From Amoebophrya sp. A120 (Eukaryota; Protista; Dinoflagellata), in contig CAJINV010000001.1 of the NCBI GenBank assembly GCA_905178155.1, positions 12,197,832 through 12,261,831 on the forward strand: a stretch of DNA of 64,000 bases, given 5' to 3'. This document shows positions 14,487 to 56,400 of the stretch, piece after piece. Both the position numbers and the translations under genes were made by a program. Under the pieces are notes generated by a model. That model had not been told where the DNA came from and did not search any database. It saw only the letters and a program-made list of their open reading frames with translations. Numbering within the stretch: the stretch's first letter is position 1; every line of letters begins with the position of its first letter.

Positions 14487-17400
14487 ATGGGCGTGGTCGC
14501 AGAGCAGCTGGCTACCCTGCTGTACAAGGATCTGATCCTCCGGCGGCGGGCGCCTTTCGAGACATTTTGTCTGTGTCTTTGCCCGTGTTTGACGATTATT
14601 CTCGCCTGCAGTTCCTTCATCTTCATCGAAGACTTGCCCCATGTTGTGCCGTTCACAACAGAGGAGAACGCGTATCGTTACTTTTTGCTTACAGGGCACT
14701 GCTCATGTTGTTCAAGAAGAGGCAACTTTACATACAACGACATCATCAAAGTTTGATAATCGAGAAACTTTAACTTACATTTTTTTACAGTGCCCAAGCT
14801 CCGGTCGGCCCTTCCTCGACGTTCCTCTTCGACCCCTTCCCCCTCGATTGCGTTGCGGTCGACGCTATCAAATGCAAATATGTCTGGGTCTGGAACGATG
14901 CAAGGTTTGTCATGCACATTTTGCATGACTCCTGATGTCTGTGATGCATGCCGTAGCATCACAGATTTTGTGAGGCCTTCCTGATGCCTATATCGCATGA
15001 GAAATGCCCTCTCGCCCTGGCAAAAACTGGCCTTCTTTTGCTGTTCATGCAATACAAGTTTTTGTAGAATTCAGACGCAGCATCACAAGTTGCATCCTTC
15101 CAGTTCCAGACATATTTGCAATGCATAGACGCCGTCTCGCTGCTCGCACGCGGAGACATTGACACGGAGGGCAACGGCGGCGGCCCGATTCAGGAGGTCT
15201 CGATTGGGTTGAAGTACACGACCAATTTTGACTGCTTTCTCGGGGCGATCGCGAGCTACATTCCGCTCTGGAACATCATGGTCCGCCAGTTGCGCGAACG
15301 CCCCTCCTGGGTGCCGACGCCGCGGACGTTCGCTGTTATAGATGAGACGCCGGTGCCGCATGGCGGCACTGTGACACGGGGCACCAGCTTCGCGAACTAC
15401 ATGGAGAAACGGTACAACCAGAACATAGCCTTGGTCATGGTTTTCTACAACCTCACCGATTCCTGTTTCCGGAACGAGCAATTGCACTACGTGGACAAAA
15501 ATTTGAGCCCCTACGACGTCGTCCCTGTGTTTGGCTCGTCTGCTTCGGGGTCCAGCTCCACGTCGCCATTCGCCTCGCTGTTCGCCGCGAATGCGACGAG
15601 GAGGCAGTTGACTGTGAGCGAGAGTGGTGACCAGTTTGGGACGAGGGGGGAAGAACAAATGGGAACAGAATCTTCCTTGAACTACTTTGAGCGGCGCGAC
15701 GACATCCGAGAGCTCGCTGTGCCCCCGGGATCCACAGTGGACGTTTCGTCATTCTCCGGCCATGTCACGGACTTTCCGGTGAGCAATATCTACCAAGACT
15801 GTATCACCAACCGCCCGATGGAGTGCTTCAACGCCTGTTTTTTCCAGGACAACAGTTTCCGCACCAACGCGATTGCTGAGATCCAGCAGGCCATGTCCGG
15901 AAGCTCGGTGGTCGCGTCGACGTCCTCTTCGAGGCGGAATCTGGTGGCCGGTGAAGAAGATGTTAGCGAGGATGTGGTGGATTTCATGAAAAACATCGAA
16001 AGTGAATACCGGAAAAATCAACAGACCATGGCATTGGAAAAGAAGCAGAAAGAGGAGGAAAAAAGGCACGAGCTTCTTCAACAAATAGACGGCAATCAGT
16101 GCGCAGACCATGATCAACTATGGTTTCCGCGCAAGAACCCCTTTGACCTGGAAGCGCTGGCAGAGTTTCTCGAACAAACAGCGAAAGCTGTGGTCGACGA
16201 GGCACCAGAAGACGCGGGCTTCTTCTTCCAAGGACGGCTCAAACAAGGTACTGAAACAAGCAGAGTTGTCTCCAACAAGCGCACGCTGCAGAGTAGTTCC
16301 ACTACTTCGTCCGGCAACAGCGGCAACACCGAGCAAGTGGATTGCCGGTCGCTGACCTCCCCGTGCGAATGTGCGCGCCACCGCACCAGTCACGGCTGCC
16401 AGTGGCGGCAGGAGTCCCGACTCCTGCACGGCATGGGGCGGTGCCGCGCGGGCAACAGCCGGCGCAGCGACACGTCGTGCGCGGAGTGCTCCAACCAGGA
16501 GGGGTGTTTAGCCGTTGACTTGTGGGAGCGGCTTGGCGCCAGCCTGCCGCGCTTGTCTCCCGCCGTGCGGCAGTTTGGCGCGGAGTCGGACTTGGAGGAT
16601 TTTATCGCGAAAGTCAATTATCCGGGGGAGCGGACGGAGCAGTGGACCAACGGGGTGAACGGGCTCCTTGAGGATGTCATCGTTTCGGACAGTATCTGTG
16701 CCGCGGTCGTTTTTGCGGACAACGGCAACCGGGCGGTCATCCGGCCCAACGCGACAAGCTCCGCAGGGGTGCAATACGGGCTAGATACGTATCGCTCCGT
16801 GTCGCTCCGCTCCCGCCCAGGCAGCATGCAGGCCTATCAGCTCTCCGGTTTTATCGGCTCACAAGCGGTGCTGAACGACTTCTTGCAGTGCCGTAACGCA
16901 GTCGACATCAGCGACTGCTTGCCCGCCTCGAGGCAAATCGCGCAGCAAGTGCAGCAGCAACAGATGAGTGTAGGTACAACAGTGACGGCGCAACCAGAGC
17001 CGACGAAGAACTACGCCAGTCAAAACGTCTCTCTGATCTCCATGGGAAGCCCCGCGCACCAGCGCAACCCGGTGTTGCAGTACAGTGGTTGGCGTTTGTG
17101 GTCGCAGATGTGGATCTCGTTCTGCTTCCCGGTTTTAACCGTTGCGGGGAAGATTCTGCGCGAAAAGGAGTCGAAGATCCGGGACGGTATGCGGATGATG
17201 GGTCTCCGCGACGCGGCCTTCTACTTGGAAGATTTCGTGTTCAACGCGATGCTGGCGTTTCCGATCGCCCTGTGTGCAGTGATCGCGTTGAGCAACATGC
17301 CGCACATTGTGATCTACAGCGACCCGTTCTTCCTGTTCCTCGTGTTCTTCTTCTGCCTGTGGCACACGCTCTCCTTCGCGGTCTTCCTCACGTCCTTCTT

Positions 17401-20400
17401 CAGCAGCTCCTTGTTCGGGAAAATCGTTTGTTTTGGCATGGTGTTCATGAGCCGGTTGTTTCTGGAGTTGACCGACGGGGGCTGGACCACGAGCCAGATC
17501 CGGGCGCTGGGGCTGTTCTTTCCCAGTTGTGCGTTCAAATACGAGATGATCACTTGGTACAATTTGGAGATCAAGACCGACGGGCTGACCGCGGCAACCA
17601 TCACCTGGCGCAACGACAATTTTTCCGCGCAAGACGGTTTGATCGTGCACATAATCGGCATCTTCATGTACACACTGTTTTTCGCCTATTTCGACCAGGT
17701 GATCCCTACCGAGTTCGGCGTTCCGCAGCCCTGGTACTTTCCTCTCTCAAAAGTCTGGTGGCAGCAAACAGTGTTTGCGACTTTCAAAGGATCAAATACG
17801 AAAGAAGAGCAGACGTCGGCTGCGGGGGAAGTAGAAGAAGAGGAACTGGCAGATGCCACGACTATGGACCGGGATCCGACGTGTTTTGAGAAAAAAACGG
17901 AACAGCAACGCGACGCGGAGCGGCGCGGGGAGTGCGTGCAAGTGAAGAAGTTGCGGAAGGAATTTTTCGTCGACGGGCAAAAGATCGTCGCGGTCGACAA
18001 TTTTTCCACCACGGTCTACAAAAACGAGATCTACGTGCTGCTCGGGCACAACGGCGCGGGGAAAACCACGACGTTCTCGATGCTCACCGGATTGATCCCC
18101 ACCACCGGCGGGACGAGCAGCTTTTTCGGCAATTCCATGCAGTACCACTTGACGAACTGCCGGTCCAAAGTCGGGATGTGCCCGCAATTTTCCGTGCTTT
18201 GGCCGCAGGTGACTATCAACTGCAAAAGTGTATGGGTCTGGAAGAGTGCCAGACTTGTCATGCAGGTTTTCCATGACCGAAGAGGTCTGGTATGTAGGAC
18301 ATAGCATGACAGATTCTGTGAGCGTTCTATCATGTTCATGCCTATCCTGGATGAGAAACTGCCTCTCGATTAGGTCAAAAGTGGGCAGCTTTTGGCAATC
18401 ATGCAACACAGATTTTTTACATGATGCAGATTTAGCATGAGATGTTGCTTTGTTCCAGACCCAGACACTTTTACATTTGATAGTGACCGCGTTGGAACAC
18501 TTGGTCTTGTTCGCCATGTGGAAGGGCGTTTCCAGGGCGGACGCGTACCGCGAGGCCGAGGAACTTCTCCGGGAGCAAAACATGGATCACAAGAAGGACG
18601 CGCTCGCCCGCACGCTGTCGGGCGGGATGCGGCGGAAGCTCTCGCTCGCGATCGCCTTCACGGGGAATCCGGAACTGGTTTTCCTGGACGAGCCTTCGTC
18701 CGGGTTGGACAGCAGTGCGCGGCGGGAGATCTGGAACCTGCTGCGGACGCGGAAGGACAACCGGGTCATCATCCTCACCACCCACTACATGGACGAAGCG
18801 GACGCTTTGGGCGACCGGATCGCGATCATGTCGCAGGGCCGGATCAAATGCTGCGGCTCGCCGAACTTTCTGAAGAACGTGTACGGCTGCGGCTACAACT
18901 TGAGCTTCACACTGACCGAATCCGCCGTGGTCCGAAACAGCGGTGCGAGCCTGTTTTTCTTCCTGCAGGAGGTGCTGAAGCCGTTCCATGTGAAACTGCT
19001 CTCGGTTGCGGGGAAGGATTTACTGTTTCTAGTGCCCTTCGAGGCGTCCGCCTGCTTCGAAAAAGCGTTCGACCGAGTTGAGAAGTACCAGCAGGCGTTG
19101 AAGATTAAGTCGTGGAATTTGTACGTATGCAACCTGGAGGAGGTGTTTTTGAAAATCGCGTCGGACGAGGAGGTATTGCGCGCAAAAACTGCTTCCACGG
19201 TCAATCCCTCCATTCTGGACATGGGAACTAACAACACCGCACGCACCGCGCCTTTCGACGACGACGACGAGCACGCAAGGCTGACGGAGAAAACCGCGAT
19301 AAGCGAAGATGTTGAGGGTACTAGGCATCAAACCGCAGTGAATGAGCACTTCGACCTGCACCTTTCCGCGGGTGCGCACGCCGCAGACCACCACTTGGCG
19401 TCTGTCGTCAAAGGGTCGTCTGAAGTCGCGTCGCGCCAGAACAGCAAGGAAACCATTGAGAAGATTGTGAACGGCACCATGCTGGGCGGAGCCGGCGGAC
19501 GCGACAGCTTCGGTACTGTCGCGTCGCAAGAGCGGTACAGCGAGATCGTAAAGGCACTGGAGGAAGGAGGTGCTTCGTCGGGCGAAGAGCAGAACTTCGC
19601 CGGAACAAGAAGTGGTGCTGGCGTAGTTGTGACGCCTGTTGGTGTTGATGATCCATCCGCTGTTCATACTTCAACTTCCGACGGTGTAGTTTCTGCTTGC
19701 CAAGCGGAAGACCTGGCCGACCACGAGCGGGTTCCGACCCCGCCGGAGAAAAAATCTCCGTTCACTTCCGATCAGGTTCTACCCGAAGTGCTTGGCGTAC
19801 CGACGTCAGGTGGAGGTGGTAAGGACAAATTTTCGGCTGCAACGGGCGGAATGAAACACGGTACACTTACACACGGTGGTGACAGCATGCTCCAGTACAC
19901 GAATGCCGGGTTCTCAAGGCAGATGCAAGCCCTCCTTTGGAAGCGGTACTTGAACTCCAAGCGGGACTTCTGGACGACCTTGGTCCAGCAAACCTGTCCG
20001 GTGTTGCTGACATCGTTGTCGATCATTTTCCTCATCCTGAACCTGAAGGATTTACCCTACCGGCAGCTGACCTACGAAAATGACTACAACACGGACATGG
20101 AAGCTCCGGCGAACCGCTACATTGTGCCGGTCTCGTTTTCCTCAGACGACGTCGAGCAAAACGACTATCAGAGCGGCATTCCTCCCAAGGTGTACACGAC
20201 GCAAAAACCCGCTTTGGCATTGTGGCCGGAGAACCAGCCGTGCAGCACGAAAGGCGGGTGCCAACAAATCAGCAGCGGGCTGAGCACCTCCGCATTGCTG
20301 TCCGCGACGGATAACAGCGTCTCCCAGTCCGAGAACACGGCGTTCGTTATCGCCGGGAGTCAGTGCCCGACCACGCAGCAGGGGGTGTACAGTGGGGTGT

Positions 20401-23400
20401 TGGATTTCGTGTTCTCCGCCTTTCAGAACCAAGTGAACCCGCTGTTGGGTGGCGGCTTCGGCGGCGCCGCCGTGACTGCGGATGCAACGGCAACAACGAT
20501 GTTGAATACGACAGCCACGGTCACCGCCGCGCCGCTGGTTTTCGCGACTACGTCGGGTTCCTTCAGTACCAGCTCACTGGCGACGTCGCGGATCCCAACG
20601 GCGGAGCAGAAGAACAGCTCGATACGGTTTGTCTACGCACTGGAAGATCAGATCCAGTACCGCAAGCCAGATGAGTCGGCGTACGGGGGAGTGCTCCTTG
20701 CCGACAACCGGAATGTCTTACTACACGTGAACCACACGGGCTACCACGCCGCGCCGATCATGCTGCAATACTTCTACAACTACGTCGCGTCCACCGTGTA
20801 TGTCAAAGACCCAGCGACTGGCGTGGAGCAAACACTGCACCACGGCATGACTGACCTCGGGGTCCACCCGCTCCCCCAGACCGCGGACGAGAAGGACTTC
20901 CGCCTGCGGTTCCAAAGCTTCGCCATCGCGTTTAACGTCATGATCTCCTTCGCGTTTGTGTCCTGCTTCTCACTCGTTTTCGTCGTGATGGAAAAGGAGT
21001 CCGAGATCAAGGCGCAGCAGTTTATCAACGGCGTGGACATCCCCACCTACTGGCTCGCGCAGTACGTCTACGACTTTTGCACGTTTTTGTTCCCCATCAT
21101 GTCGCTGCTCATCGTCCTGCCCTTTCTGGAGGTCTGGTCCCTCGTCGGGGCGGACACGCTGCCCGTGTTCCTCATGCTCATGCTGCTGTTCGCGTTGGCG
21201 ATCCCGAGCTTCTTCTACATCTGCGCGCACGGGTTATGCATTGCAAAAGTATCGTACTCGTATAAATGCATTACAAATTTCCTCAGCATGAGAAAGAAAA
21301 TGCGGATTTGCCTTCAGAAAAAAGTTTGTGATGCAAGACTTGCATTTATTATACGAGTACGATACTTTTGCACAGGATACGGGTTCCGCACGGCCAATTC
21401 GGCCATGACCACGGCCTTGGTGATGAACCTGCTCGTCGCGACGGTTCTGTTCATCGTCACCTTCGTGTTCGAATTGATGCCGTTCGTGATCACGCGGAAG
21501 GTCGGCTACTACATGTCCGCGCTGTCCCGCATCTGGCCGGTTTTCACGTTCGGCGAGGGCGTGCGCCGGATGGCCATGGTCAGTTTCATTTGGACCCAAA
21601 ACCCGCCGGACACGATGACGGACTCCTACTACAGCGACTGCGAGGAAAAATACGACAGATTCGAGATCGGCGCGCACTGGTGCTCGCAGAGCATGTGGGA
21701 CAAGTTTGCCGCCGGGCAGGCGTTGACGATTTTAGGCCTGCAAGCGGTCTTCTACATCACGATCGCCATCATCATCGATTTGCTGCAAGAGGACGTGCGG
21801 TTTCGCCAGATTTTCTTCGAGCCCAAATTTGATCCGAGCGTGAACAAAACGGCAGAAATCCGAGCGCTGCGCGACCAGGACGTGGTAGACGAGGAGAACC
21901 GCGTGCACGGCATGCTGGCGCAGGGGCAGGGGGGACACATGATGACGCCGATGACCAGTACGGGAGGTGACCCTGAACAAGATCGAGATCATCCTGGGCA
22001 TCGACAACAAGTCGATCACGACCAGACCGCGGACGATCCAACCACGCGGACCACATCGAGCCACAACCATCGACCTGGTCAAGTCGCGTCGCTGCCGCAG
22101 ATAATTGACCCGGAACAAAAAGTGTCGATCTTCTTCAAGAACGTGAGCAAGCTGTTCAAAGTGAGCACGAAATCCACCGTGATGGGTGCCCCGGTGGTGG
22201 CAAGCGAGACCGGTAGCGGACAGGGGGTCACCCTGACCGGGGCGCCGGAGTTCAAAGACACCAGTTTCACCACCTTCGTGAAGGAAAGGTGCTGCTGTTG
22301 CTGCCCGTGTTTTCGGAAGAAGACCGAGGTCCGCGACGTGCACGCAGTGCGGGACTGCAGTTTCGCACTGCACAAGGGCGACGTTTTCGGGTTGCTTGGA
22401 GCCAACGGTGCGGGGAAAACCACGACGTTCCGGATGATGTGCGGCGTTACGGTGCCCGCGAAAGACCCCGACACGGACATCCGCATTCTCGGCAAGGACA
22501 TTTTCACCCAGCGCGCAGAGTGCCGCCAGCTGATCGGGTACACGGCCCAAGCCAACCCGCTGTGGATGGGCATGACGGTCCGGGAGCACCTGGAGTTTTA
22601 CGCGATGATCAAGGGCATTCCCCCGCACGAGCTGGCTCTCGTTGTGGAGAAGCAGATGCAGGACCTGGACCTGCTTTCCTACGTCACCAAGCGGGCAACC
22701 AACCTCTCCGGCGGGAACAAACGCAAACTCGTGATCGCCATGTCGCTCATCGGGGCGCCGCCCGTCTTGTTTTTGGACGAGCCGTCCGCTGGGATGGACC
22801 CGGCGGCGCGACGGAAGATGTGGAGCATACTCCACTACATCGCGACGAAGCGAAAGCGCAGCACGGTGATTCTCACCTCGCACAGTATGGACGAGGTGGA
22901 GGCGCTGTGTTCCAAGCTGTGCATCATGACCAACGGCGTGTTCCGCTGCATGGGGTCGCTCTCCCGCATAAAGGAACTGTACGGCAAGGGGTTCGACCTG
23001 TACGCCAAATTCGAGGAGCCGGAAGACGTGCGAATTAAGGCCGTCGTGCGCGAACATTTGATGACGACTGCCATGATAAACAGCACCGTTTCTACAGCAA
23101 CTTTGGACGACCAGCAGCTCGCGACCAAGACCGTTTCGTTGGAAGAAGCGCAGCAAATCCTTCTGGCAGTAGAGGACGTCCTCAAGCTGACTACATCAAC
23201 AGAGGCTGGTGATGCAATGAAACAAGAGCACACAACTTCAACTTCTTACGTCACAAGCGTAAAACAGCAGTTGCAGCAGATGCTAGTGGAAAAGAACTCG
23301 CCGTTTCCCCACGCGTCCCGCCTGTGGAGTAAGGAGGTGAAATCGAAGGACGACCTGAAGCGCATAAAGGAGGACCGGGTGCGGCTCCTCGCGCTTGGGG

Positions 23401-23852
23401 AATGGTTTTTGTTTGCGTGTTGGCGCATCCGCTTCGCCAGTTTCGTCCAAGAGCGTTTTGCCCACGCCCAGATATTGGAACAGAGGCAAAACGTGTTGCT
23501 GTTCCGGATCGACGCCACGGATTCCAGACGCGTGTTAGACAGTACCAAGAAAGAGGACGACATCGGCGATCACGGTAGTGGCGTGCCGCCGGTGGATGAA
23601 AATGCAACTACCACTGCCATTCCCCATGTGGCGGTAGACGACCACGAAGATGCCGCGTCGCGCATAACAAATCCCGATGAAGCCAGAGGTGCTAGTACGA
23701 GCGGAACGAGTTTCCTAGGTCCGCTGTTTGGACTTTTGGAGAAGCACAAATCCGAATTCCATATCATGGAATACGCAGTGACCCCAACGACACTCGAGCA
23801 AATCTTCAACCAGTTCACGTTGGCGCAAGTCGGAGAGGATGACACACTGTAG
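14487..23852 (+). CDS. Full-size ABCA-subfamily transporter (TMD-NBD x2), interrupted by one GC-AG intron (14696-14790) and three TIR/TSD elements
   Basis: Two NBDs: GHNGAGKTT/LSGGMRRKL/LDEPSSGLD and GANGAGKTT/LSGGNKRKL/LDEPSAGMD. ABCA hallmarks EKESKIRDGMRMMGL and TTLEQIF. Frame is continuous after element removal (e.g. WPQV-TALEHL). Confidence 0.95.
14866..15127 (-). mobile_element. TIR/TSD intron-like element E1, family A (262 bp)
   Basis: TATCAAATGCAAATATGTCTGGGTCTGGAA ... TTCCAGTTCCAGACATATTTGCAATGCATA. TSD GACGC at 14861-65 and 15128-32. Removal gives CVAVD-AVSLL. Interior is the reverse complement homologue of E9. Confidence 0.9.
18214..18482 (-). mobile_element. TIR/TSD intron-like element E2, family A (269 bp), in NBD1 of ABCA
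   Basis: TATCAACTGCAAAAGTGTATGGGTCTGGAA ... TTCCAGACCCAGACACTTTTACATTTGATA. TSD GTGAC at 18209-13 and 18483-87. Removal restores LWPQVTALEHL. Confidence 0.92.
21235..21379 (+). mobile_element. TIR/TSD intron-like element E3, family B (145 bp), in-frame and stop-free
   Basis: TATGCATTGCAAAAGTATCGTACTCGTATAA ... TTATACGAGTACGATACTTTTGCACAGGATA. TSD CGGGT at 21230-34 and 21380-84. Removal gives YICAHGFRTANSA. Confidence 0.9.
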
Positions 23853-27453: not shown

Positions 27454-29208
27454 ATGGCGGGATCCATCCGTAAGAAGTTGACCAGCGTGGCGCTGGTGGC
27501 GGCGGGCCTCAGCAATTTCAACGTCGTCAGTGGACGCAAGTTCCTTTCTGCAGCAAATGCAAATAATGGAGCAGCAGCAGAAGTAGAGCACGGGCAGCTG
27601 CAACCGGGGGGAGGGGCAGAAGTCATCAGCGCGGCTGTCGCGACTTCTCAAGAACCCGAACCCGTCGTCGAGCGGCATGCTCGTTATGACGCTTCTGTCG
27701 CTTCTTCGAGTATGAGTCGTGAACAAGCAGAACAAGATGTTGAGATGATGCCCGAGGAGGACGCGGAGCACCAGGACGCTCCTGTTTCATCTTCCCCTGC
27801 TGTCATCGAGGAGGATCAGTGGAACCAGCAAGGGTTCTTCGCCGAGCCCGTCGATGCGCAGGCCGACGAGCAGCTCGCTCCTACTGCCGTCATGTCGACT
27901 GACGGTCAGGAAGCTCGTGCTCTTGATGACATCGAAGCAGAGCGTCAACATGCTCAGAGAGAAGCCGAAGAGATGATGGAAACAGCTCCTTTGCTACCCG
28001 CACAGGCAGTCTCTGAGGAAGAACCCGCTCAGGCTGCTGCGCCAGCATCTGATTCTTTTGTTGAAGACGCAGGACAGGAAGTAGATCCGTTGAAGCCCGA
28101 GTCGGCAGAACCGGAGTCCGCTGAGACGATGGAAGGCTCGGAGTCGCAGACTGTGAGTGAAGAACCCGTCGTCGAGCTGCATGCTCATGATGCTGCTCCT
28201 GTCGACGCTCCTCTTTCTCAGGTGGAGCCGCCGCTTACGAGTGAAGGCGAAGATGTTGAGATGACGTCCGAGCAGGGCAACGCGGAGCACAAGGACGTTC
28301 CTGTAGTTTCTTCCCCGGTCGTCGACGAAGAGCAGCAACGGGAGCCGCAATGGTTCGCCGGCGCGCCCATGGTCCATGCGCAGGCTGAAGAGGAAGCTCC
28401 TACGGGCGCCATGTCGACTGACGGTCAGGAAGGAGATGGCGAAGTCGATGCTCAACTTGTTGAACGAAAGGAGGAAGACGAAGAGATGGAAACAGCTGCT
28501 CCTTCGCTACCCGTACAGGGGGCAGTCTCTGAGGAAAATAAACCTGCTGAGGCTGCTACGGCATCATCTTCTGGTCCTGTTCAAGACGCAGGAGAGCAGG
28601 CTTCGTTGACCGAGCCGAAGCCGGCGGAGCAGAAACAATCCGCTGAGCCGATCATGGAAGGCTCTTCAGGGTCGCAGACTGGTGACGAAGCTGTTACGAT
28701 CACGAGCCGTGGGGCCGTTTTGATGGAAAGCGGACGCGCCCAGGCCCTGCACATGTGTGAGCAGGCACAACGCGGCACCAAACGCGCTTTCCTTGCTGTA
28801 CAGTCAGAATGCCGGTCGAAGGTTCGAGCGCTATCGGAACGGGCGCGGGGTCGCGCTGCCGAGGCACACGCAGCTGCGAGAGAGTTTCACGAAAACAAAA
28901 CTCGCCCGTTCCTCGCGAGCGCCGCGCAGCTGAGCTCCAACGCGGGTACCAAAGCCTCTGAAGGGGCTGCGGCGCTTCGGGAAAGCGTCGCGCAGCTGAG
29001 CTCCAACGCGGGTACCAAAGCCTCTGAAGGGGCTGCGGCGCTTCGTGGACACGCCGTGCAGGCAAGGGGAGCCCTCAACCGAGCCTGCGACCGTCGTCGT
29101 CGGTCCCGCTCTCCTCGCGGAAGGGCTCGTGCTGCTGATGAAGGTGTTATGACGGCCGAGGCGGATGAGCGTGCGCAGGAAGAGGAACAACCTGCAGCTG
29201 AACCGTAA
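27454..29208 (+). CDS. Putative secreted acidic repeat protein, 584 aa, intronless
   Basis: Hydrophobic N-terminus (LTSVALVAAGL), long E/A/P-rich body, internal duplication and 22-aa repeat. Confidence 0.8.
   Translation: MAGSIRKKLTSVALVAAGLSNFNVVSGRKFLSAANANNGAAAEVEHGQLQPGGGAEVISAAVATSQEPEPVVERHARYDASVASSSMSREQAEQDVEMMPEEDAEHQDAPVSSSPAVIEEDQWNQQGFFAEPVDAQADEQLAPTAVMSTDGQEARALDDIEAERQHAQREAEEMMETAPLLPAQAVSEEEPAQAAAPASDSFVEDAGQEVDPLKPESAEPESAETMEGSESQTVSEEPVVELHAHDAAPVDAPLSQVEPPLTSEGEDVEMTSEQGNAEHKDVPVVSSPVVDEEQQREPQWFAGAPMVHAQAEEEAPTGAMSTDGQEGDGEVDAQLVERKEEDEEMETAAPSLPVQGAVSEENKPAEAATASSSGPVQDAGEQASLTEPKPAEQKQSAEPIMEGSSGSQTGDEAVTITSRGAVLMESGRAQALHMCEQAQRGTKRAFLAVQSECRSKVRALSERARGRAAEAHAAAREFHENKTRPFLASAAQLSSNAGTKASEGAAALRESVAQLSSNAGTKASEGAAALRGHAVQARGALNRACDRRRRSRSPRGRARAADEGVMTAEADERAQEEEQPAAEP
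27658..28690 (+). repeat. Diverged intragenic tandem duplication (copies start 504 bp / 168 aa apart)
   Basis: GAACCCGTCGTCGAGC at 27658 and 28162. Collinear shared motifs DVEM, MSTDGQE, METAP/METAA, AVSEE, EDAG/QDAG, MEGS. Confidence 0.8.
28923..29045 (+). repeat. 66-bp-period tandem repeat (57 identical bp x2) encoding AQLSSNAGTKASEGAAALR
   Basis: Identical segments at 28923-28979 and 28989-29045. Confidence 0.9.
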
Positions 29209-35354: not shown

Positions 35355-37697
35355 ATGAGCAATCTCCAGAAGATGGGAGATCATCAGGCGGAAGCGGCCG
35401 CCGTTTCTCCGGAGCAAATTGAGATGTACAAGGAGGTGTTGCAGCTCGGCTCGGACAACAGTCCCAACCCCCAGTTCCAGAAAGCCGTCGCGGAAACCTA
35501 TCTCGAGCTGGCCGAGGACCGTGCCTTTCTCGATTACGTGATCAACCAAGGCTGCCGGAATATGGATGTGTCAGGATCGAAATCGACAAAATCGAAAAAC
35601 TTGTGATGCATAAAATGTAGAGCACTGAAGGCCTGTATTGGGGCGCATGCATATGAGGCCGATTGTAAGCCTGTTTAGGGGTATGCAATGCGCTGCCAGA
35701 GTAGCATGACAGGAGCAGTTTTCTTTCCCAAAACAGCATGACAGACTGGATTTTGGTGCTCCCGAAATTTGTCATGCGCCAATTGAAAACTGAGGCTCTA
35801 ACTGACATCGATTTTGTGCATCACAAGTTTTTCGATTTTGTCAATTTCGATTCTGACACTCCCATACGGAAACTCTGCCGCCCGCTGCTGCGTATGGTCG
35901 AGCGCGACGCGGCGGATGTGTGGGCCTCGGTGCTGGACATATCAAGTGTAAAAATGTCTGGGTCTGGAAACTTGTAATGCTGTGCTGGGAATAGTGAATG
36001 CTCTGTAATGCACAGCCCAGCATGAGAAATATCTGCAGCGCTTTGTGTTGCGTTTTTCGCATGAGAAACTGCGTTTTTGCACGATAGGCAACAGGGTCTC
36101 TTCTTGGACACGCATCACAAACTTTTTAGCCATGCCAGACAAGCATGACAAATCTCGCAATCTTCCAGACCCAGACATTTTTACATTTGATAGGACAAGG
36201 TCGAGTCCAACAACAATGGCCACGGATTCGCGTCAGAAACGAAGAAGCAGAAGGAGCGATCGAGCGTGTACCAGCTGACCCGGGAGTCCTGCAACGCGGC
36301 ACTGCAGGCCATGATCAATTTAGCCGCCACGCGCGCGATGGCAGTGTGTTTCTTGGAACTGAATGCCCAGGTGCGAATTGCGGACTTCATCACCAGGCAG
36401 GCAAAAACCTTGCAAACCGAGGCTGCTGCCGATAAGAACAACACGACTGAAGACGAAGCAGAAAAAAAAGAGTACTACGTTTGGTTCTGTGCGAAAATCA
36501 AAATAGAATGTGAGTGCTGTGTTGCTAGGACTTATTAATATAAGTAAAATTTGACAAATTACGAGCCCCTTGTCAGGAGACAGATGATGCTGGTTAGTCA
36601 AATTTCAAGCGAGATTCTGGCACTAGTATATCGACGAAATGAAAAGGGAGACCAAAACATACAAATGCACAACATATTTATACAGGAGCCAGCGCCTGCT
36701 TCAGGAGAGCATCCAGCTGTCCGTGATGTTGCTCGGAAACCTCACCGGACTGGTGTGCCAGGCCGCGCAAGACGCCGAGCAGGACAGTTCCAAAGATGCA
36801 AACGTGCAGAAACTGCTGAATTCCGTGGTCCCAACCCTCCTGAACTTCTACCTGCAGCCCCCAATTTGCGAGAAGGACCTCTTCGTGCCCGTGGCCACCA
36901 CGCTGATTTCCGTCTGCGAACTGAAGGAAGGCCGAGCCCTGCTCGCCCAGCCCATGATTCTCGCCATCCTTGGACAGCAGCTGCTTGCGAGACAAAGGAG
37001 AAAAGACGTGCTGAAGCTGTACTGCAAGCTCGCCGCCGGCGCCGACGAGGAAGTGCACCAAATGTTATCCAGTGCGCAATTCCTCCCCCGCGTCTGCTGC
37101 TACTTCTTCGAGAAAGCGGACGTCGCCGCAGCGAAAAAACAGTCGGAGATGTTGACCGCAGCGTGCAGCGACAAGACGATGACAGCGGAACAAATTCTGG
37201 AAGAAGAGTTCCACCCGCTAGTCCTGCAGGAGGCCCAGGGCATCTCGCAGGATAGCGATATGAAGCAGTTTGGGATCGACCTGTTCTACCAGTTCACAAA
37301 AACCGAAAACGGAAGGGCCGCCCTGCGCGAGCAGCGGGTTCTGCCGGTGCTGCGCATGTGGCGAAAGAGTGAAAGGGACGCCGAGGTTCGGGGCAAGCTT
37401 CAAGTGGTTATTTCCACCGCGTCAGTTTTGCAAAAGGACGGGGACGCGGTATTGGAGACGCCGCTGCTGATCACCTGCGACAAAGACGGAAACATCCAGA
37501 GCTTACGCGCGGAAGAAGGCTCCACGCCGACGAACTGCAGCTCAGGATCTTCGCCCGCGGGCTCGTGTGGTGGAGATGCTGTTTCGTCACCTGCTGCAGA
37601 AAGAGATGCGTGGGAACAAGTGGAATCCTCGCCAGCGACATTGTTAGAAGAGGAGGAAGCTGAAGAAACCGTGGAAGAGATTGTGCCCTTGTTCTGA
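35355..37697 (+). CDS. HGH1: HGH1/FAM203-like armadillo protein, interrupted by two TIR/TSD elements and one GT-AG intron (about 36484-36685)
   Basis: SPNPQFQKAVAE, ALQAMINLA, SVMLLGNLT and GRAALREQRVLPVLR resemble HGH1 motifs. Frame is continuous after element removal (GCRK-LCRPLL; VLDK-VES). Confidence 0.65.
35561..35866. mobile_element. TIR/TSD intron-like element E4, family D (306 bp)
   Basis: TATGGATGTGTCAGGATCGAAATCGACAAAATCGAAAAACTTGTGATGCA ... TGCATCACAAGTTTTTCGATTTTGTCAATTTCGATTCTGACACTCCCATA (about 50-bp TIR). TSD CGGAA at 35556-60 and 35867-71. Confidence 0.92.
35940..36192 (+). mobile_element. TIR/TSD intron-like element E5, family A (253 bp)
   Basis: TATCAAGTGTAAAAATGTCTGGGTCTGGAA ... 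TTCCAGACCCAGACATTTTTACATTTGATA. TSD GGACA at 35935-39 and 36193-97. Confidence 0.92.
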
Positions 37698-42642: not shown

Positions 42643-45600
42643 ATGGCGCGGCCACTCTCCAGGACGACCCTGTGGCGCATTTTCTTCGTGACATCACTAG
42701 TCTTCACCCCGACCGCCACTAGGCGGCGCATGTTGCGGCGGGAGAAGAGGCCCCAGGAAATCGAGCAAGAGCAAGACCAGGAGCACTTAGAGCATGAGCT
42801 ACCTGCATCCCCGGTTGGTGCGGCTCCTGCGACGGAGCCGCCATCGAGTCCTTTCCACTCGGCGACCGCCGCGGTCATGTCGTTTCTTCAGACCACGCTG
42901 TCTTCAATTACCCACAGCGCAGTAGCAGACGACGAAAAGGAAGACGGACAGCACAGCGAAACGTCTGGACAGACCACCACGAAAGGGGATGTGGACGAGG
43001 ACTCAGTGCAACCAGTACAAAACACAGGGGCTGTCAACCTGGACGAGGAAGAGGATGAGTCATTCAACAACGCTGCTGCTTCTACATCTTCGAAGACAGC
43101 ACACGACGAGCCTGCGACGTCTTCAGGGCGAGAAGCTAATCCGCAGAAGGAATTGTCTCAAGCAAGCGAGGGGACCGAGTCTTCATCAAGCACAGATAAA
43201 GCTGCCTCCACGGACGACAACAAGGTGCAAGATTCACGAGTAATACCCAACGAAGAAAGTGGAAAGGTATCGAAGGAAAAAAACAATGGATTCTCGCCGA
43301 CTGACGGCAAGAAAGCCAGTGCCAGCAGCAGCAGCGAAGATAGTTGGAACACTCACGAAACAGCAACAGTAGATTCTGATAAAAAGACGCACGGAGCTCC
43401 AACTCAGCAACAGCAGGGAAGCAAAGACGAGGTGTCATCATCTACGAGAAGAGAAGACACTCAACCACACGAAGAAAGGAACAGCCCAAGCAGCACTACC
43501 GCGACAGCCACTACCACCGAGGATCCGGCACCACATGAGTACACGCCGGAGGAGCTCGGGGAAGCCGATATGCACTACGAGGACCCGGAAACATTTTACT
43601 ATTCGCGGTATGGCTATGGGAGTGTCAGGATTGAAATCGTCAGAGTTGAAATAGTTTGTCATGCATAAAATCTATACCACTTGGACCCCCAGTTTCCAAT
43701 CGGCGCATGGCAAATTTTCCTGGCCTCTGAAGCAAGTCTGTCATGCTGTTTAGGGCAAGAGGGTTCCCCCCTGTGATGCTAGCCAGCAACCCAATTTATG
43801 ACTCTTGCCAACCCTATAATCTGCTTCCTTTGCGTCCTGTGCAATAGAGTCAGTCTTTGTGTCGCATTTTATGCATGACAAATTATTTCAACTTTGCCGA
43901 TTTCAAACCTGGCACATTCATAATGGCAACGGGTATACGGAGGACGACGACGACGGGTGGGTTGACGAGCTCGAGGCGCAGTCCGATATCGACAGCACGG
44001 GCTCCTTTTTGGAACGAAAGAAAGTCACCGAGGAACGCAAAGAACATCAAGGCACCGCGGCAAATGCTGCAGCCCCCGTTACAACGGTGGATGCGGCGAA
44101 AAAGCCGAAGAGCCTGAAGAAACTGAACCAGGAGGCTGCGGACCTTGCTCGGGAGGCCTCCAGCATCATCCGTCTCAGAGAGCAGATGCACATGGGGAAC
44201 AACCTCGCCCTGTACGCGCGATCCGACCCGGCACTGTGGAAGCGCAGAGTCCCGGAGAGCGAGTCGATCCGTTCCCTGCTTTACGAGATGGGGTTCCCCA
44301 TTCGGGACGTGTCCGCCCTCACGCAGAATTTGAGCTGCAACCGGGACCTGAGCAAGAAGCGGCAACGGCTGGTGTTTGCGACGAAGCTGATCGGCCGGGA
44401 AGCGGTTGACCAGGGCAAAACCACGGCGGCCGTGGCAACTTTGGAAAACAACGTGGAACGGTTGCAAACCGAAGTGCGCCCGAATTACAAGATTGCGGAC
44501 GAAGAAGACAACGACCTGCGCCAGTGGCCGCAGAAGATGATGTTCGACAGCTTCACGGACTGGCTGAACAAAGCCGAGAAACCGGTGGTAGAGTTCAAAA
44601 AAGCGATGAAGGTGAACGCGGAGAAAATCCTCTCTTCCCGGCTGCAGGCGAAGTGCTACGGCTACACGCTGCTGAAGCACCCAAACAAGATGTATTGCCT
44701 CATGTTCACGCCCGACAACTTCGTCCACTTCACGCGGCGGAGCAACAAGTTCAAAACGGCGAATTTGCAACAGCTCGAGCACTACCGCCAGATGGCGTCC
44801 GCGCAGTACGACTGCGACAAAAAGGTGCTGGGGCTCGCGCACGACATTTTCCAGGACCAGGTCCGCACCTTGCAGAAGATCCGCAACAACATCGACAAAT
44901 ACCAGCGACTCCACGAAATCAGCGGACGGAAGTTCATCAACCTGATGAACGCCGTGCGCAGCAGGGACGATTCGTCCACCGGCGCGGTGAGTTTGCGGGA
45001 CGGGGAGCAGGTGAACCTGGCGGAAAACGCGGCCCAACTGGTCGGTTTGTCCGAAAACATCCGCGACGACGGAGTTACCAACATGGTGGAGGACCACGTG
45101 CAGCACGAGGGCGCGCGGTTGCAGGCCATGTTCTCCGGTGACACGCACCGCGTGTACGCCTGCAACAAAATCGACTGCGAGCCGGTTGCCATCCCGGGTT
45201 CGAACGGCAAGAAGCTGAAGATGTCGGACGTGAAGCGGTACGCCGCGCTGTGGACCGGCATCAAAACGCCCGTGGTCGAGCTGGGGTTGACGAAGGTGGT
45301 CCGGGACCCGGCGACGGGGAAGTTGCAGTACACGCCCAGTTATGAACTGCAAAAGTATCGTACTCGTATAAATGCATTACAAATTTCCTCAACATGAAAA
45401 ATTTGTAGTGCGGATTGACCTGCTTAAGAAAAGGATTTGCAATGCATGATTGCGATACTTTTGCATAGGATACCAGTCCGGACGACGTTGACGAGGAGGG
45501 GGTGCCGGTGGACCTCGACACGCCGAACGTCATGCTGATCGTGTACCCGCGGAAAACCATGAAGACCGGGCAGGCGTGGAATGTCTTGCAAAATTGGTGG

Positions 45601-48048: not shown

Positions 48049-48067
48049 GCACGCACGCACGCACGCC

Positions 48068-48143
<76 letters not shown>

Positions 48144-48144
48144 C
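48049..48144. repeat. (GCAC)24 microsatellite
   Basis: Tetranucleotide array with one GCCC variant; intergenic. Confidence 0.97.
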
Positions 48145-49033
48145 ACACGGTCGCCCTTCTGTTTCTTTTCTTAGCATGCAGCGTTTTGCTTTTGGCTTTC
48201 TATTTCCCTCTTCATTCTTTTCTTCAGGAGCAAGACCAAAAACGAGAAAGCACAGAACGGAGCCACGCATCCCGATTCTGGTTGGAAAACGCAACTCGAA
48301 AGCAAAAGCGAATTCTATGTACCTTGGTAAATTCTAATTCTCTATGAAAATTCTAATTCTCTATGACGAGTGGTTAAGGAAAGGCGTAGGAAAGGACTAT
48401 TCGGAGATTTCGGCAAAAGCAAAATATTTGAAAAGTGAAGACGTTTTATATCCATATCATTTTTTTCCTTGCTCGGGTTGATTCCACTTGGCGACTGAAT
48501 AGATACAAAAATTCGAAGTGCCTCCAAACTGCGAGTTTGAGCTGAAGGCATTCTCTTCATTTATCTCTCTTTCTCAACCATCTCTTGTACAATATGTTTT
48601 TAAATTTTATATAAAGGAAGGAGTACCTGACGGCAGGCCTCCGAGTTGCTTCATCTTACCATCTTGGGAGGCAGAAATAAGTTGATCGCAACCGCGAGGG
48701 TCCTTACCTCACTTTCCGGGCTTGATTTTTAGTAAACTGAAAAACGATCATGAACTATTTCTACCTATGTCACAATAGATTTATTTATCATCTCGAACAC
48801 TCCACTTCATTTCATTTGTCACGCTAATGAAGAACGAGAAACGTAGTAATACTTCGGAATTCTAACATTTCTCAACGAAGATTTTAGATTCAATATACCG
48901 CTCGTCCCGGCGCAGTCTCAGATTTCATAAATTTTAAAAGGTATAGGTTTTAAAGCAAGGCCCAAAGCGCCAGATTGCGATGCAAGCCTCAATAAGAGCA
49001 AGCGTCGTTTGTCGTCAACGGCGGCACTACAAG

Positions 49034-52000: not shown

Positions 52001-52177
52001 GTGGACGACGTTTTGTATGCCCCAGGGGGGCGGGGCTGGTTTCTCTCGTCGGACACGAGCGCTGCGACTGCTCGCAGTCGCACTATGAAGCGGCAAAAGA
52101 CTTCCACTATCGAGGATTCTTCTCGACGAGCTCGTCCAGCTCCAGCGAGCGTACAGCAGGGGGAAGAAAGGAAGTAG
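49034..52177 (+). CDS. Hypothetical Ser-rich, largely disordered protein with putative signal peptide (about 1047 aa), intronless
   Basis: 3.1-kb ORF. The second Met begins the hydrophobic MAWLIFFGLHAGILCARA. No domain recognised. Confidence 0.7.
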   Translation: MAWLIFFGLHAGILCARAATFSFPAPPDELEALSVAGGGTSRENQQLQREADLRHDFSPAKSSTLRPALETFVSFLSSASAAVGRRWLFYDSPPCGRSTKPDHVVHVDQRQPTLFSASGQDDEDAAPAESVLTKSDLPEDDKLLANAQMNKKPGSHDAISWIKQPRLSSGLHNFFESEAGSPTASSSFGASASTSSSGGLRQEHDFQNPRSGMMYFGDSDGSPFPSPSGDSDMMYYHEEHADTASATTTGTREQQNGTAPWALEPSANYTMLRQPQLHLRLPTACKGAPGKKTCADEGVRSCSKQMKTTRDHEVMKQDIEIEMDGGVRISGKRKASSLCCSSRNETGSSSAVADGCSWASPALLPQKFEKLDIQREENHLEVLSSTESSAKKNPSKKKTKNTKDVLPPRVKHEKNATVFDETSSASSRPPAGFLAARIGFTKEVLSAVLQKETEQRHRKSRRAGGGGPLAASVWSREIGGPPPCRCHRPADFAEDKHFRPMSSPRTTPTAASPDEDDIFDDDDDLPVESFWTRAMGDCPPPERCFSPADFLEVEESRLSSPAPAASPVSARSPVARNSTGMDGSQLHFELVEEEIYPTPSCSRGNYSDVAAEPKHGPCYSTELQPQMNFVEDGLRCTSPTNTKLRFLSPTKGKGKNGTNDAKHVGPLWPSREEDLFSQFLCSGSHISASGPVGVADDVKKSTSWPAGKRENPDVVLESSYDFVAVGNESCRSGCRSFGASSMKPKQKPQPDPTRAESAIDYGCSTDESEVLEEAEDADDSEDAAEGKKRKGKQLPPLKARTQKTRRGHLEEELAGQTQEEHADDSFRSHSLPSSKQPNKLVLPIESRRHAVGNKSSRATHVGTPQTQNRPDHERCAAAAIERGSTTTSATPIEVDSRKNAAFSASTTHDFSHHGQAVYTRSSSSSRPRAQLSLLGDLKNPPFAELTGRHDPLGCMLPPSLHEFEQLRNYQERLRAGEGEGSQERAPPTTVDDVLYAPGGRGWFLSSDTSAATARSRTMKRQKTSTIEDSSRRARPAPASVQQGEERK

Positions 52178-52798
52178 GCCTGGATATTGAAGGTGGTGGT
52201 GGTCGCTCAGAGGAAGAAGTTTAGGAAGGCACAAGCTCAAGCAGGCCTAGGTAGTATGTATAGAATATCAATGTGTTGTGTTCCTGTACAACTAGATAGT
52301 ATGTATCGATCTCTATATTTGTCAAGATCCGCAGCTGACCGTGGCAAGAACTAGGACAACGAGAAAGTACTTTATACCTTATTTAAGCATTCTGTTTCAA
52401 TGGCGTCATCATGGTCATATTATCGTGAACGGTTATCGTCATGCTCCTCGCGAAGTAGATCAGCCCGCATTTAGAACTACTTTGATAGATAAAATAGTAA
52501 TAGGAGCACAAAAATACTATTTCTAGCTATAGCGATTCAAGTCTCGTCTTCTTTCTTTTGTGAACGCGTGATTTTGTGCTGACTTCTGCTCTTCACCAAA
52601 ACAAAATATAGACTAGAGAACAACGGCCGCTGTCGGCGTACAGTCAGACGGTTTTGCGGTCATAGTTTCTCTTTCATATATGTAAAGCCTTCAACTTGCC
52701 GAAGACTGAGGTGCACCAACACGAAATTTCGTAAATCACGAAGAAGCTCTCGGTTCTAAAGAAAAAGAACGCTGTAGGTATACATTGCAGGTGTGTGA

Positions 52799-52850
52799 AG
52801 ATTTTAGCGCTAAAGAAGAACGCTAGATTTTAGCGCTAAAGAAGAACGCT
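52799..52850. repeat. 26-bp perfect tandem duplication containing the palindrome TTTAGCGCTAAA
   Basis: AGATTTTAGCGCTAAAGAAGAACGCT x2. Confidence 0.85.
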
Positions 52851-53462
52851 CTGGAGGCTATCAAAAGAAAAAATGAATGAAGTATTCCATGCATTTTTGT
52901 CTAACAATTTCTCTGAAAAACAAAAAATAAAAAGATGGGATGCAATACTTTTCTGCAAGAATATCATCGTTTCGGACTGTTATCATCGTCCTGTGCAGAT
53001 ACTACAACCCCAGAACCAAAACGCACTTATGAATGAACTGACATCCGCGCGGCGACACATCGACGCTGCTTCTTTTTCCGAAGAACTTTTCGACGCATTT
53101 GTTGTGTTTACAAACCACTGCCTTTTTTCATGAGTGTAAGTTCCGCTTCGTTGCCAACGCTGGGCGATTTCAACCGTCCTCTCGGTGGATGGACGAGTAC
53201 AAATTCTTGACAGTAAGACCTCCCGTTTTTCACTGAAACAAAAGTCGTGTTGGCACTCATTTATGCATTCGCTTTGTCTTCGATTTTTCAGAATCGTCTT
53301 CGATTTTCAAACTGTTCGCGGATCTCACATAACAGTGGCTTCTTCTGGTTTTGCAGTGTTATTCGCCGGTTGTCAAACACGTAAACCACGGGGACGAACG
53401 AAGACAATCAGCAATTCGATATTTAACTATCTTCACAGTCATCACGTTCACGACACCAGCAC

Positions 53463-56400
53463 ATGCAGGTCCTCGACCCCGATGGTGACAGCGACCCCGG
53501 GGACGATTCGGACTTCAGACCCACCGGTTTTCCGGCCGCCCGCGAGCGCAGCAGCGGAGCAGACGGCGACGAGAATTTGTATCATGTGAAACTAAAAATT
53601 TTTCACACAGGAGGTGGTGGTACAACAACATTTTCCGGTTCCTATGCGGTGCAACCGAAACCACCCGGACAGCAGCTCGTCCAGCAGGACCAAGAGCCGT
53701 TGTTCCAGCGCATCGAGATTTTGGAGGTCGCCGTGAGTAGCTACGAGGACCTGGCGGAGTTTGTGCGGACGCACCTGCAGGACTGGCACTGCGAGTGGCA
53801 GATGCTGTCGGGCGCCAACGTTCCCTTCACCGAGGACCTGCTGTACTCCCGGCTCTCCAGCCGCCGGCTTCCCGTCTTGGTGTTCGTGCGCAAGGTATCC
53901 TGTGCAAAAGTATCGTACTCGTACTGATTGCAAATATGCATGACAAATCTCCTTCCTAGTAAGGTAAAACAGCATTACAAATTCCACTTTTCTTCTTGCC
54001 AAAATTTGTGATGCAAGTTATACTAGTACGATACTTTTGCAATGCATACGAGGCCGCGAGCCTGTACCAGCGGGAATTGCAGGAGGTGGTGGCGCGCGCG
54101 GAAACCAAGCTGCTGGAAAAGCTGCAGGACGACCAGGAGGGGCGGGAATTTTACCTGAAAACCATGGAGGCGCGGGTGCAGGAGGCCGAGAGGGGCGTGG
54201 CGGACCTGAGCGACCTGTTCACGCTCCCGCCGCGGTCGCCGTCCGCGAAAAGTGTGTGGTTCGTGGTGTCCGCGGAGCTATTGATTCTGCTGGTGTTTGC
54301 GGTCTGGGTGGTGAAACTGTCCGTCGCGCGCCTGGACAAGGACGAGATGAGCGTGCGCCACTGGGTATCAAATGCAAAAATGTCTGGGTCTGGAAGGATG
54401 CGAACTTGTGATGCGTGTTGCGGATCATACAGAAATCTGTGTTGCATGACTTGCAAAAGCAGGTCCCCATTTCTAGCCATGCCGAGGGGGCATTTTTCAT
54501 GCAGAATAGGCATCACCAAGGGGCTGCAGAACCTGTGATGCTAGGCCCTGCATTCGAGACTTGGCGGAGCTTGGAAAAACTGCATGACAAATCTCAGAAT
54601 CTTCCAGACCCAGACATTTTTGCATTTGATACTGGGGGCAGCGGCTGAACCGGTCGCTGAACGAGCTGGAGGTACTACGGATTGCAAATATGTCTGGGTC
54701 TGGAAGAATACAAACCTGTGATGCGCATTTCAGAACACAGAAAAATCTCTCATGCATAGGTAGCAAAAGCTGCCCAAATTCTGTCACCAAAATGGGGGAT
54801 TTGTCATGCGGATTCGGCATTGCGGAAGCTTCTCGAAGCCTGTGATGCTAGAGCTTCCATGCCAGACTTTCTGTGTCATGCAAAAACAGCATGACTCTTC
54901 CAGACCCAGACATTTTTGCAATCCATAGGTGCAGAGTGCGAACAACTTCACCCTGGCTTTTGGCTTGCTCGAAACGGACAACCGAACCCTCTCGCGCACG
55001 GTGAACACGCTGAACGTGACGACGACTGCGTTGAACATCTCGGAGACGCAGGTCGCGCAGTTGGGGACCGCGCTGAACACGAGCCACGCGAACGCAACCC
55101 GTCTTGCCGTCGCGGAAAGGTTTTGGAAGCAGGATAGTCTGGCAGCGCGAACGGAATTGAATGCAACAAGTGCCGAGGTGTCCTCGCTGCAGATCCGGCT
55201 TCGGGCGTCGGAGGCCGAGATTCTGCGGCTGCAAAGCGCCCTGCAAACCGCGCAGGCGGGGGAAAGCGCGCTGGGAAGCAGGCTGAATGTCTCCTACAGT
55301 GAGCTGAACAACACCCGAGCGGCCCGGTCCGATTTGCAGCGTGCGCTCGCGGACTCGCAGGGCTTGATCGCGCAGCTGCGGGGGAAGGAGGGCCAGGAGC
55401 AAGCTAAAGTTGCAAATTTGACACAGGAACTGCAGCGACGGGAGACGGCGGATGAAGGCATCCGCAGCAAGCTGGCAGCGACGGAGAAGGCGTTGCAGGA
55501 CACAACAGGCAAGTTGGGCAATATGACACATCTGAAGGACGTCCTGCAGTACCAGCTGAGTTTGCTGACAAGAGACCTCCGAGACACGAAGTCGCAGCTA
55601 GGGAAGGAGGTCGCAAGAGACCGTACCTTGGAAGGGCAGGTCGCGACGCTACAGAGCGAACTCGATGCAAGTCGGAGCCAAAATGCCGATTTGATTGCGG
55701 AAGTTGCGGCCGAAAACCGAACGCTGCAAGGCGAAGAAGCTGTGTTGCGGCAAAGAAATACGTCGATCGCAACGACGGAGAAAGAACTGCAATCCGCACA
55801 GCAAGCGAACGCCGGCCTTAGGCGCAGTCTGAATGTCAAAAAGCAACAGCTCGCAAACGCAACCGAAAAAGTCGCGCAGGAAAGGGCTGACGCGGAAGAG
55901 TCCGAGAACTCACTGGAATTGTCTCGAACCAAGCTGGGTCTGGCGGAGAACGAAATTAGCACTTTGCAAGCCACTCTGCTATCGTCGCAGAAGAACGCGA
56001 CTCGTTTGCAAACCGCAGTCAACGCCGAGGAGGTCCAGGACCGCAAACACCTGAATGCGTTGAGCACTACGCAAGCCTCACTTGCCTCCTCTCGCGCAGA
56101 AATTTCCAGCCTAAACGGCGCATTGGCCTCCGCAAACGGGAACGCGACCGCGGTAGCGAGGGAAGAGCAGGCTGATCAGACGACAATCAGCGATCTCCGG
56201 GCCAGACTCTCCGCCGACGTCGGGAATGCGGCCGCATTGCGGACGCAGTTACACGACAGTCGAACCCGGTCGCAACAGCAGATCCAAGCCTTGCAGGCCA
56301 AACTTGCGCAGTGTGAGAAGCAGAAATCCTCGACAATTATTCCGCCGACGCCTTTGACTAGTACGTCTTCAACGACGACGAGCACAACAACACTACCATT

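Follow-up and report, generated by a model that had tools for sequence, protein, structure and literature searches.

Fifteen inverted-repeat elements, E1 to E15, interrupt plus-strand genes in a 64-kb stretch of the genome of Amoebophrya sp. A120 (contig CAJINV010000001.1), which was analysed as a whole and is referred to as the window; all positions are counted from its first base. The elements, located by a local inverted-repeat scan and boundary fitting, span positions 14866 to 63605, measure 132 to 321 nt, and have a GC content of 33 to 48%, compared with 52% for the whole window. They are the A120 introner elements already published by Farhat et al. in 2021 (PMC7789003) and are likely non-autonomous DNA transposons of the short inverted-repeat type. 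In that paper, A120 introners are about 240 nt long, have inverted repeats in which an initial TAT typically precedes seven variable bases and then an A run, and are flanked by direct repeats of 3 to 5 nt (5 bp in the legend of Fig. S19). The organism, the TAT ends, the repeats, the division into families, and the noncanonical removal all agree, with no difference in kind.

Elements and host genes

The elements of the window start with TAT in 13 of 15 cases and with TAC in the other two (E10 and E12), and all 15 end with ATA. Their inverted ends are 30 to 55 nt long and carry an A run after the terminus in families A, B, and D and in E14; family C lacks it. A 5-nt direct repeat borders each element; its two copies are identical at 12 of the 15 and agree at 4 of 5 bases at E8, E10, and E14. 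GT-AG ends are possible only for E8 and E10 among the 15.

In silico excision of each element together with one repeat copy leaves an open plus-strand frame across 15/15 junctions, the frame being short upstream of E1 because a GT-AG intron is located there. If retained, 11 of the 15 insertions would shift the frame, and 14 contain stops in all three plus-strand frames. The earlier note on this window placed all host genes on the plus strand, and both the open frames and the annotated A120 proteins bear this out: the annotated proteins match the plus-strand product over 2789/2789 residues for the host of E1 to E3 and 841/841 residues for the host of E8 to E10. An orthologue of the former from another Amoebophrya aligns without gaps over E1, E2, and E3, and E2 splits the first ABC ATPase domain, with PF00005 matches at positions 2-73 and 81-136 on either side of it.

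Two 20-kb stretches of the window were compared with contigs of the public runs X1, X3, and X4, which come from one study and whose RNA origin is guessed. These contigs are unstranded, so host strand was inferred from frames and proteins. Thirteen elements lie inside the compared stretches (E1 and E15 are outside), and the number of those with a joint is a lower bound. The features are as follows; no strand is assigned to the elements themselves, and a skip is the omission of an element plus 5 nt.

14487..23852, plus strand: host gene of E1 to E3, an ABCA-type transporter
53463..56674, plus strand: host gene of E8 to E10, an 841-aa protein with no Pfam match
14866..15127: E1, family A, interior inverse to E9; repeat GACGC; removal fits annotated protein P0001 and the ungapped orthologue P0003
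18214..18482: E2, family A, E1 orientation; repeat GTGAC; 274-nt skip in X1, X3, and X4
21235..21379: E3, family B; repeat CGGGT; 150-nt skip in X1, X3, and X4
35561..35866: E4, family C, inverse to E6; repeat CGGAA; 311-nt skip in one X4 contig
35940..36192: E5, family A, E1 orientation; repeat GGACA; 258-nt skip in one X4 contig
43615..43922: E6, family C; repeat ATGGC; X1 contig pieces join 43609 to 43923
45341..45472: E7, family B, E3 orientation; repeat CCAGT; X1 and X4 pieces join 45335 to 45473
53896..54048: E8, family B, inverse to E3, E7, and E15; repeat CAAGG/CGAGG (base 2 differs); annotated protein P0121 and orthologue P0122 carry the residue encoded by the left repeat copy
54366..54631: E9, family A, reference orientation; 32-bp perfect arms; repeat CTGGG; removal fits P0121
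54676..54927: E10, family A, E9 orientation, starts with TAC; repeat GGTAC/GGTGC; removal fits P0121
60106..60417: E11, family D, inverse to E13; arms 19/30 in register; repeat CGAGC; skip inferred from X1 and X4 contig coordinates
60482..60731: E12, family A, E9 orientation, starts with TAC; repeat AGAAG; skip inferred from X1 and X4 contig coordinates
62190..62510: E13, family D; repeat CGGCG; 326-nt skip in X1 and X4
62579..62803: E14, no family assigned, internal perfect palindrome; repeat CTTCG/GTTCG (base 1 differs); 230-nt skip in X1 and X4
63456..63605: E15, family B, E3 orientation (from interior alignment); repeat GCATG

Orientation and removal of the elements

The window contains four families, and each has members both ways round. 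The earlier note had reported that the interiors of E1 and E2 are reverse-complement homologues of E9 and that E8 is the inverse of E3 and E15, and alignments of the interiors, with the arms trimmed (35 nt cut from each element end in the E1/E9 comparison) and z scores taken from 60 shuffles, confirm and extend this observation. Against the reverse complement of E9, 138/191 aligned positions of the E1 interior are identical (score 149.5, z 23), compared with a score of 2.5 in the forward direction; for E2 the figure is 134/192. E8, which starts TATCCTGTGC and ends AATGCATA, is inverse to E3 (53/72) and E15 (57/80) and additionally to E7 (45/62). Family A thus has E1, E2, and E5 one way and E9, E10, and E12 the other, and family B has E3, E7, and E15 opposed to E8. 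Two further inverse pairs were found, E4/E6 in family C (125/184) and E11/E13 in family D (154/238), the latter relation being weaker because family D is strongly self-complementary. The peptides previously cited for the E1/E9 match, at 15012 (minus strand, in E1) and 54485 (plus strand, in E9), are non-coding and merely reflect the homology of the DNA.

For a larger sample, a metagenome collection was scanned with the family A end, yielding 150 of about 500 stretches, all from contigs that share an assembly prefix. Elements were called without reference to host strand, and the 320 raw calls were filtered to 241 distinct ones, which in the best matches are 75 to 91% identical to those of the window. 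Host strand was assigned by a codon model on the flanks for 177/241 elements (64 received no call), with agreement within 38/43 loci; the model was trained on the window, so its 15/15 score there is not independent. The counts concern orientation and sequence, and family tallies include only elements with an alignment score of ≥30 and an orientation gap of ≥25. Tabulated against host strand, as the earlier note had proposed, family A is unbiased: the two orientations occur 51:52 (n = 103), and 42:45 and 36:35 at stricter margins for the strand call. The other families count 6:11 (B), 3:5 (C), and 5:1 (D). The duplication has no fixed base in the related copies. The impression from the window that its first base is never T (0/15) was discarded, as T occurs there in 31/175 related copies, and so was the idea of hidden canonical ends, a GT-AG reading being possible, in any register, in 9/138.

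No transposase-coding partner was found in the window, and the inserts reached from unpaired arms in the related loci, not searched further, have no open stretch longer than about 200 codons. Three family A elements in the related loci (L006:1494 onward, L043:571-1051, and L071:1494-2465) carry roughly 200 to 1000 nt of unrelated insert between their arms. Three other inverted repeats, at L023:2383-2680, L025:934-1374, and L063:1831-2092, end in TTT...AAA, CAT...ATG, and TAA...TTA; their direct repeats match at 4/5 bases, and they represent other families or chance. The end patterns of families A and B gave 0 matches in viral contigs, that of family B gave 0 in prokaryote genomes, and Rfam models of self-splicing or other intron families gave 0 matches at gathering scores in the window.

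In the RNA-type contigs, at least 10 of the 13 elements are skipped exactly, together with 5 nt, among the joints listed. Family A is skipped both ways (E2 and E5 versus E12), as are families C and D; for family B, removal of the inverse copy E8 is supported by the annotated protein. The joints listed include none at E8 to E10, which counts neither for nor against their skipping. The earlier note held that its argument would fall if only one orientation were spliced; both orientations are absent from these contigs in three families. X4 contigs skip a GT-AG intron as well, X9 contigs extend from the flanks into elements, and X5 covers exon pieces only. The imperfect repeats bear on the position of the cut. 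At E14, RNA contigs keep the C of the left repeat and drop the G of the right one, which places the cut no earlier than after base 1. The residue given by left base 2 is retained at E8 in both the annotated protein and the orthologue, so that the cut probably falls after at least base 2.

Very short exons of about 40 to 65 nt separate some neighbouring elements (54632-54675, 60418-60481, and 62511-62578). The short exon is retained in the skips at E11/E12 and E13/E14; between E11 and E12, contig coordinates leave space for 59 nt only. Neighbours are in some cases of the same family, and their arms could pair across the short exon, e.g., the right arm of E9 with the left arm of E10. Within E14, positions 62669-62767 form a perfect palindrome (49 bp, 1-nt loop) that may stem from a nested insertion or from fold-back duplication; the element is exactly skipped nonetheless.

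Elsewhere in the window, an intronless plus-strand frame at 57178-58335 matches polynucleotide kinase 3′-phosphatase (PF08645, E 1e-24). Three exons of the host gene of E11 to E15 were compared with Pfam and gave no match; the gene contains a 24-nt tandem repeat encoding MDPNAMGG (61729-62007). A 66-nt tandem duplication in coding frame (28918-29049) is single copy in one low-depth X4 contig, possibly through assembly collapse, and an intergenic (GCAC)n microsatellite occupies 48049-48144.

Signals in the ends and the paired arms

Because both orientations are removed and neither is favoured, the asymmetric interior holds no required directional signal. To this extent the inference drawn in the earlier note, that the element carries no such signal, stands. 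It does not extend to the ends, which over their 30 to 55 nt look identical either way. Orientation independence therefore does not imply that the stem is recognised, as the inverted ends would show a directional signal identically in both directions.

A polypyrimidine tract and a branch site were the directional signals at issue. The pyrimidine content of the element 3′ arms is 0.56, compared with 0.57 in the GT-AG intron candidates of the window, and the lack of a tract is not distinctive since the tracts of these candidates are weak too. No branch site could be assigned in the 15 elements: a YTRAY motif lies 3 nt from the element end in 6/15, lies at 11 or 55 nt in 2/15, and is absent in 7/15. 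Terminal TGAT was rejected as a branch site, being present in only 6/15. The absence of YTRAY says little, because ordinary intron candidates here have it in only 6/16.

The terminal TA differs between the two ends. Among 175 related copies with a perfect duplication, TA is lost at the transcribed 5′ end in 0 and at the 3′ end in 7 (p = 0.016, exploratory), and allowing one repeat mismatch gives 1 versus 10 (n = 200, p = 0.012). The comparison was made post hoc, after the tables had been seen, and the opposite direction had been expected. No general sense-strand excess of A>G accounts for the asymmetry, which hints at a directional donor signal. It fits three further observations. First, 13 of the 16 GT-AG intron candidates (picked by eye, one checked against RNA) start with GTA, namely GTAC in 7, GTAT in 4, and GTAA in 2. 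Second, the two window elements that do not start with TAT read TAC. Third, in Table S4 of Farhat et al. (PMC7789003), the nine commonest noncanonical motifs of A120 all start with NT and those of A25, whose repeats begin with TTA, all start with TT. A bias at position 4, where the ends differ (5′ TATC versus 3′ CATA, 39 versus 19; Bowker p = 0.049), fails correction for 50 tests and is a lead only.

A stem is predicted in both orientations and is strong for most elements (sense z of −1.8 to −18, 12 shuffles each). In the related loci, 4218/4890 arm positions are Watson-Crick pairs, the least-paired end positions being 4 (97/163), 5 (103/163), and 7 (70/163). Among mismatches on the transcribed strand, G-U is not in excess over A-C (147 versus 160; 54 versus 59 when counted per element), a null result at three margins from a test that is low-powered if the mismatches are inherited family differences. 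Changes common to both arms number 66, against 39 ± 5.6 with shuffled partners (0/1000), and 25 of the 66 fall at one position; subfamily descent explains them equally well, and they are also expected from the needs of a transposase. In E7, E11, and E12, the terminal three pairs are predicted to be mostly open (mean probability 0.0, 0.17, and 0.15), yet all three are skipped exactly. The folding and covariation checks proposed in the earlier note gave a predicted stem in both orientations and an excess of shared changes, and the mismatches show no RNA-pairing bias. The note's further step, that the stem is therefore the recognition feature, finds no support in these data, and it is weakened by the better conservation of the 5′ TA and by the introners of Polarella and Aureococcus, which work either way with splice sites of the ordinary type.

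A second candidate signal is the motif TGTnATGC (or its complement GCATnACA), with 43 occurrences in the 3604 bases of the elements and 2 in the remaining 60396 of the window. It lies 33 to 47 nt from the ends across families, with a peak at 41 to 43 nt; in families A, C, and D the distance is 41 to 45 nt (e.g., 54407-54414 in E9 and 35602-35609 in E4). In family B the motif is reversed, about 34 to 47 nt from the ends, and E14 has none near either end. Its fixed distance despite unrelated arms points to one shared binding protein. A motif at a fixed distance is the typical look of a transposase binding site, and this one could be such a site or a splicing signal.

Possible modes of removal and known systems

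We tentatively favour, at somewhat below even odds, a reading in which a relaxed spliceosome takes an N-UAY donor from the element end and locates the acceptor by measuring from the stem. A DNA transposase would insert the element either way, making the 5-nt duplication, and the inverted ends would supply the signals identically in both directions. A cut after base 4 of the duplication would let the intron begin with N-UAY, which resembles the host's GUAY donor in all but the first base, left free here. The acceptor would then lie four target bases past the terminal AUA. As it has no fixed sequence, we propose that its spacing from the paired arms defines it, with the stem acting as ruler and bridge and not as the sole signal. 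The chemistry would be that of a spliceosome reported to lack U1: for A120, nearly all spliceosomal proteins and U2, U4, U5, and U6 have been reported, and U1 was not found (PMC7789003).

Several observations weigh against this reading. The TA asymmetry is small and at a stricter strand margin shrinks to 0 versus 4 of 126 (p = 0.125), and no position survives correction in 50 per-position tests of symmetry. The cut register is seen in RNA solely as at least 1, and the E8 annotation may have favoured the GT-AG reading available there. In Table S4, 8 of the 9 A120 motifs also end with AN, which fits a cut after base 1 (PMC7789003), and the motifs were all chosen by the aligner within a repeat that allows several placements. 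G is not enriched at target base 5 (43/138 related copies), the elements have no consistent YTRAY, there is no visible selection for RNA pairing, and E11 is removed despite a slipped stem.

In a variant that we regard as possible but doubtful, UA at intron positions +2 and +3 suffices for a machine without U1, and the 3′ site is found purely by distance from the paired ends. The corollaries that neither AG nor a conventional branch motif is used, and that A25, with repeats starting TTA, follows the same N-T-A rule, are similarly doubtful. If this variant were true, any inverted-repeat element ending in TA would make a perfect intron wherever and whichever way round it was inserted.

It is unlikely, in our estimate, that the paired arms alone are recognised and that an endonuclease and a ligase independent of the spliceosome cut at fixed offsets from the stem, as proposed for euglenids. 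Such a mechanism would suit the strong predicted stems in both orientations of most elements, the pairing kept while arm sequences differ between families, the free junction sequence, the absence of a detected U1, and the excess of changes shared by both arms; euglenid introns, moreover, are released as circles (PMC11282704). It accords poorly with the directional constraint on the 5′ TA, with the lack of a G-U excess, and with the three elements skipped while their terminal pairs are predicted to be mostly open, and the shared changes are those expected from subfamily descent and transposase needs.

Rather improbable is a mechanism in which proteins or small nuclear RNAs bind motifs at both ends (the terminal TAT/ATA, the A or T run, and TGTnATGC/GCATnACA at 33 to 47 nt) and the pairing is a by-product of transposon origin. 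The concentration of TGTnATGC in the elements and the missing RNA-pairing signature argue for it, as do fungal symmetric introns, which dispense with their symmetry for U2 splicing (PMC8469720). Against it, none of the candidate motifs is constant: TGTnATGC runs the other way in family B and does not occur close to either end of E14, the A run is lacking in family C, and the 3′ ATA is altered in some copies. The fixed-distance motif, besides, resembles a transposase binding site.

Finally, that the skips are reverse-transcriptase template switches across hairpins, for which a hairpin with a short direct repeat is a known setting, or DNA deletions is highly improbable even with the RNA origin of X1, X3, and X4 guessed from one study and only 13 raw reads from X12: most insertions shift the frame (11/15) or carry stops in all plus-strand frames (14/15), yet orthologues are ungapped over E1 to E3, the ABC domain spans E2, X4 skips a GT-AG intron too, and X9 contigs run from the flanks into elements.

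Creation of introns in either orientation is a known property of inverted-repeat introners. In Polarella glacialis (several introner classes) and Aureococcus anophagefferens, introners make introns in either orientation and, like those of A120, have target duplications (10.1101/2020.10.14.339549). There, splice sites are recruited from the duplication, with GT, GC, or GA donors and AG acceptors, and classes 6, 8, and 10 are biased to one orientation, whereas the A120 copies are free of any target-sequence requirement and show no bias in family A. Euglenid nonconventional introns share with the A120 elements, in which the pairing is predicted, paired ends that would join the junctions, duplication-like repeats, the absence of GT-AG, and a likely origin from miniature inverted-repeat transposable elements (MITEs) (PMC11282704, PMC11170887). 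They differ in having short stems, CAG/CTG at fixed offsets, purine/pyrimidine rules at the junctions, and circular products. The introns of Fritillaria borealis are MITE derived, as those of A120 likely are, have inverted repeats too, and are handled by an adapted U2 spliceosome (PMC11282704, PMC13326754), but they have fixed AG-AC or AG-AT ends where those of the A120 elements are free.

For A120 itself, Farhat et al. proposed a hairpin that joins the exon ends and saw noncanonical junctions without a clear signature (PMC7789003), in contrast to the N-UAY donor proposed here. Their text and supplement, figures aside, speak of orientation with regard to gene order and were not found to relate that of the elements to the host gene. 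Gozashti et al. (2025) assigned A120 introners to several transposon classes, and the Gozashti 2022 pipeline allowed copies in opposite orientation. In the literature searched, figures and most subscription papers excepted, we found no paper that addresses, for Amoebophrya, the orientation of the elements or an NUA donor.

With both orientations removed, required signals are to be sought in the ends and no longer in the interior. This bears on the way in which Amoebophrya disposes of such introns, tens of thousands of which lack GT-AG, when no U1 has been detected. If the N-UAY donor and the stem ruler are real, an acceptor would be chosen here without sequence, which would explain how these transposons insert freely in exons.

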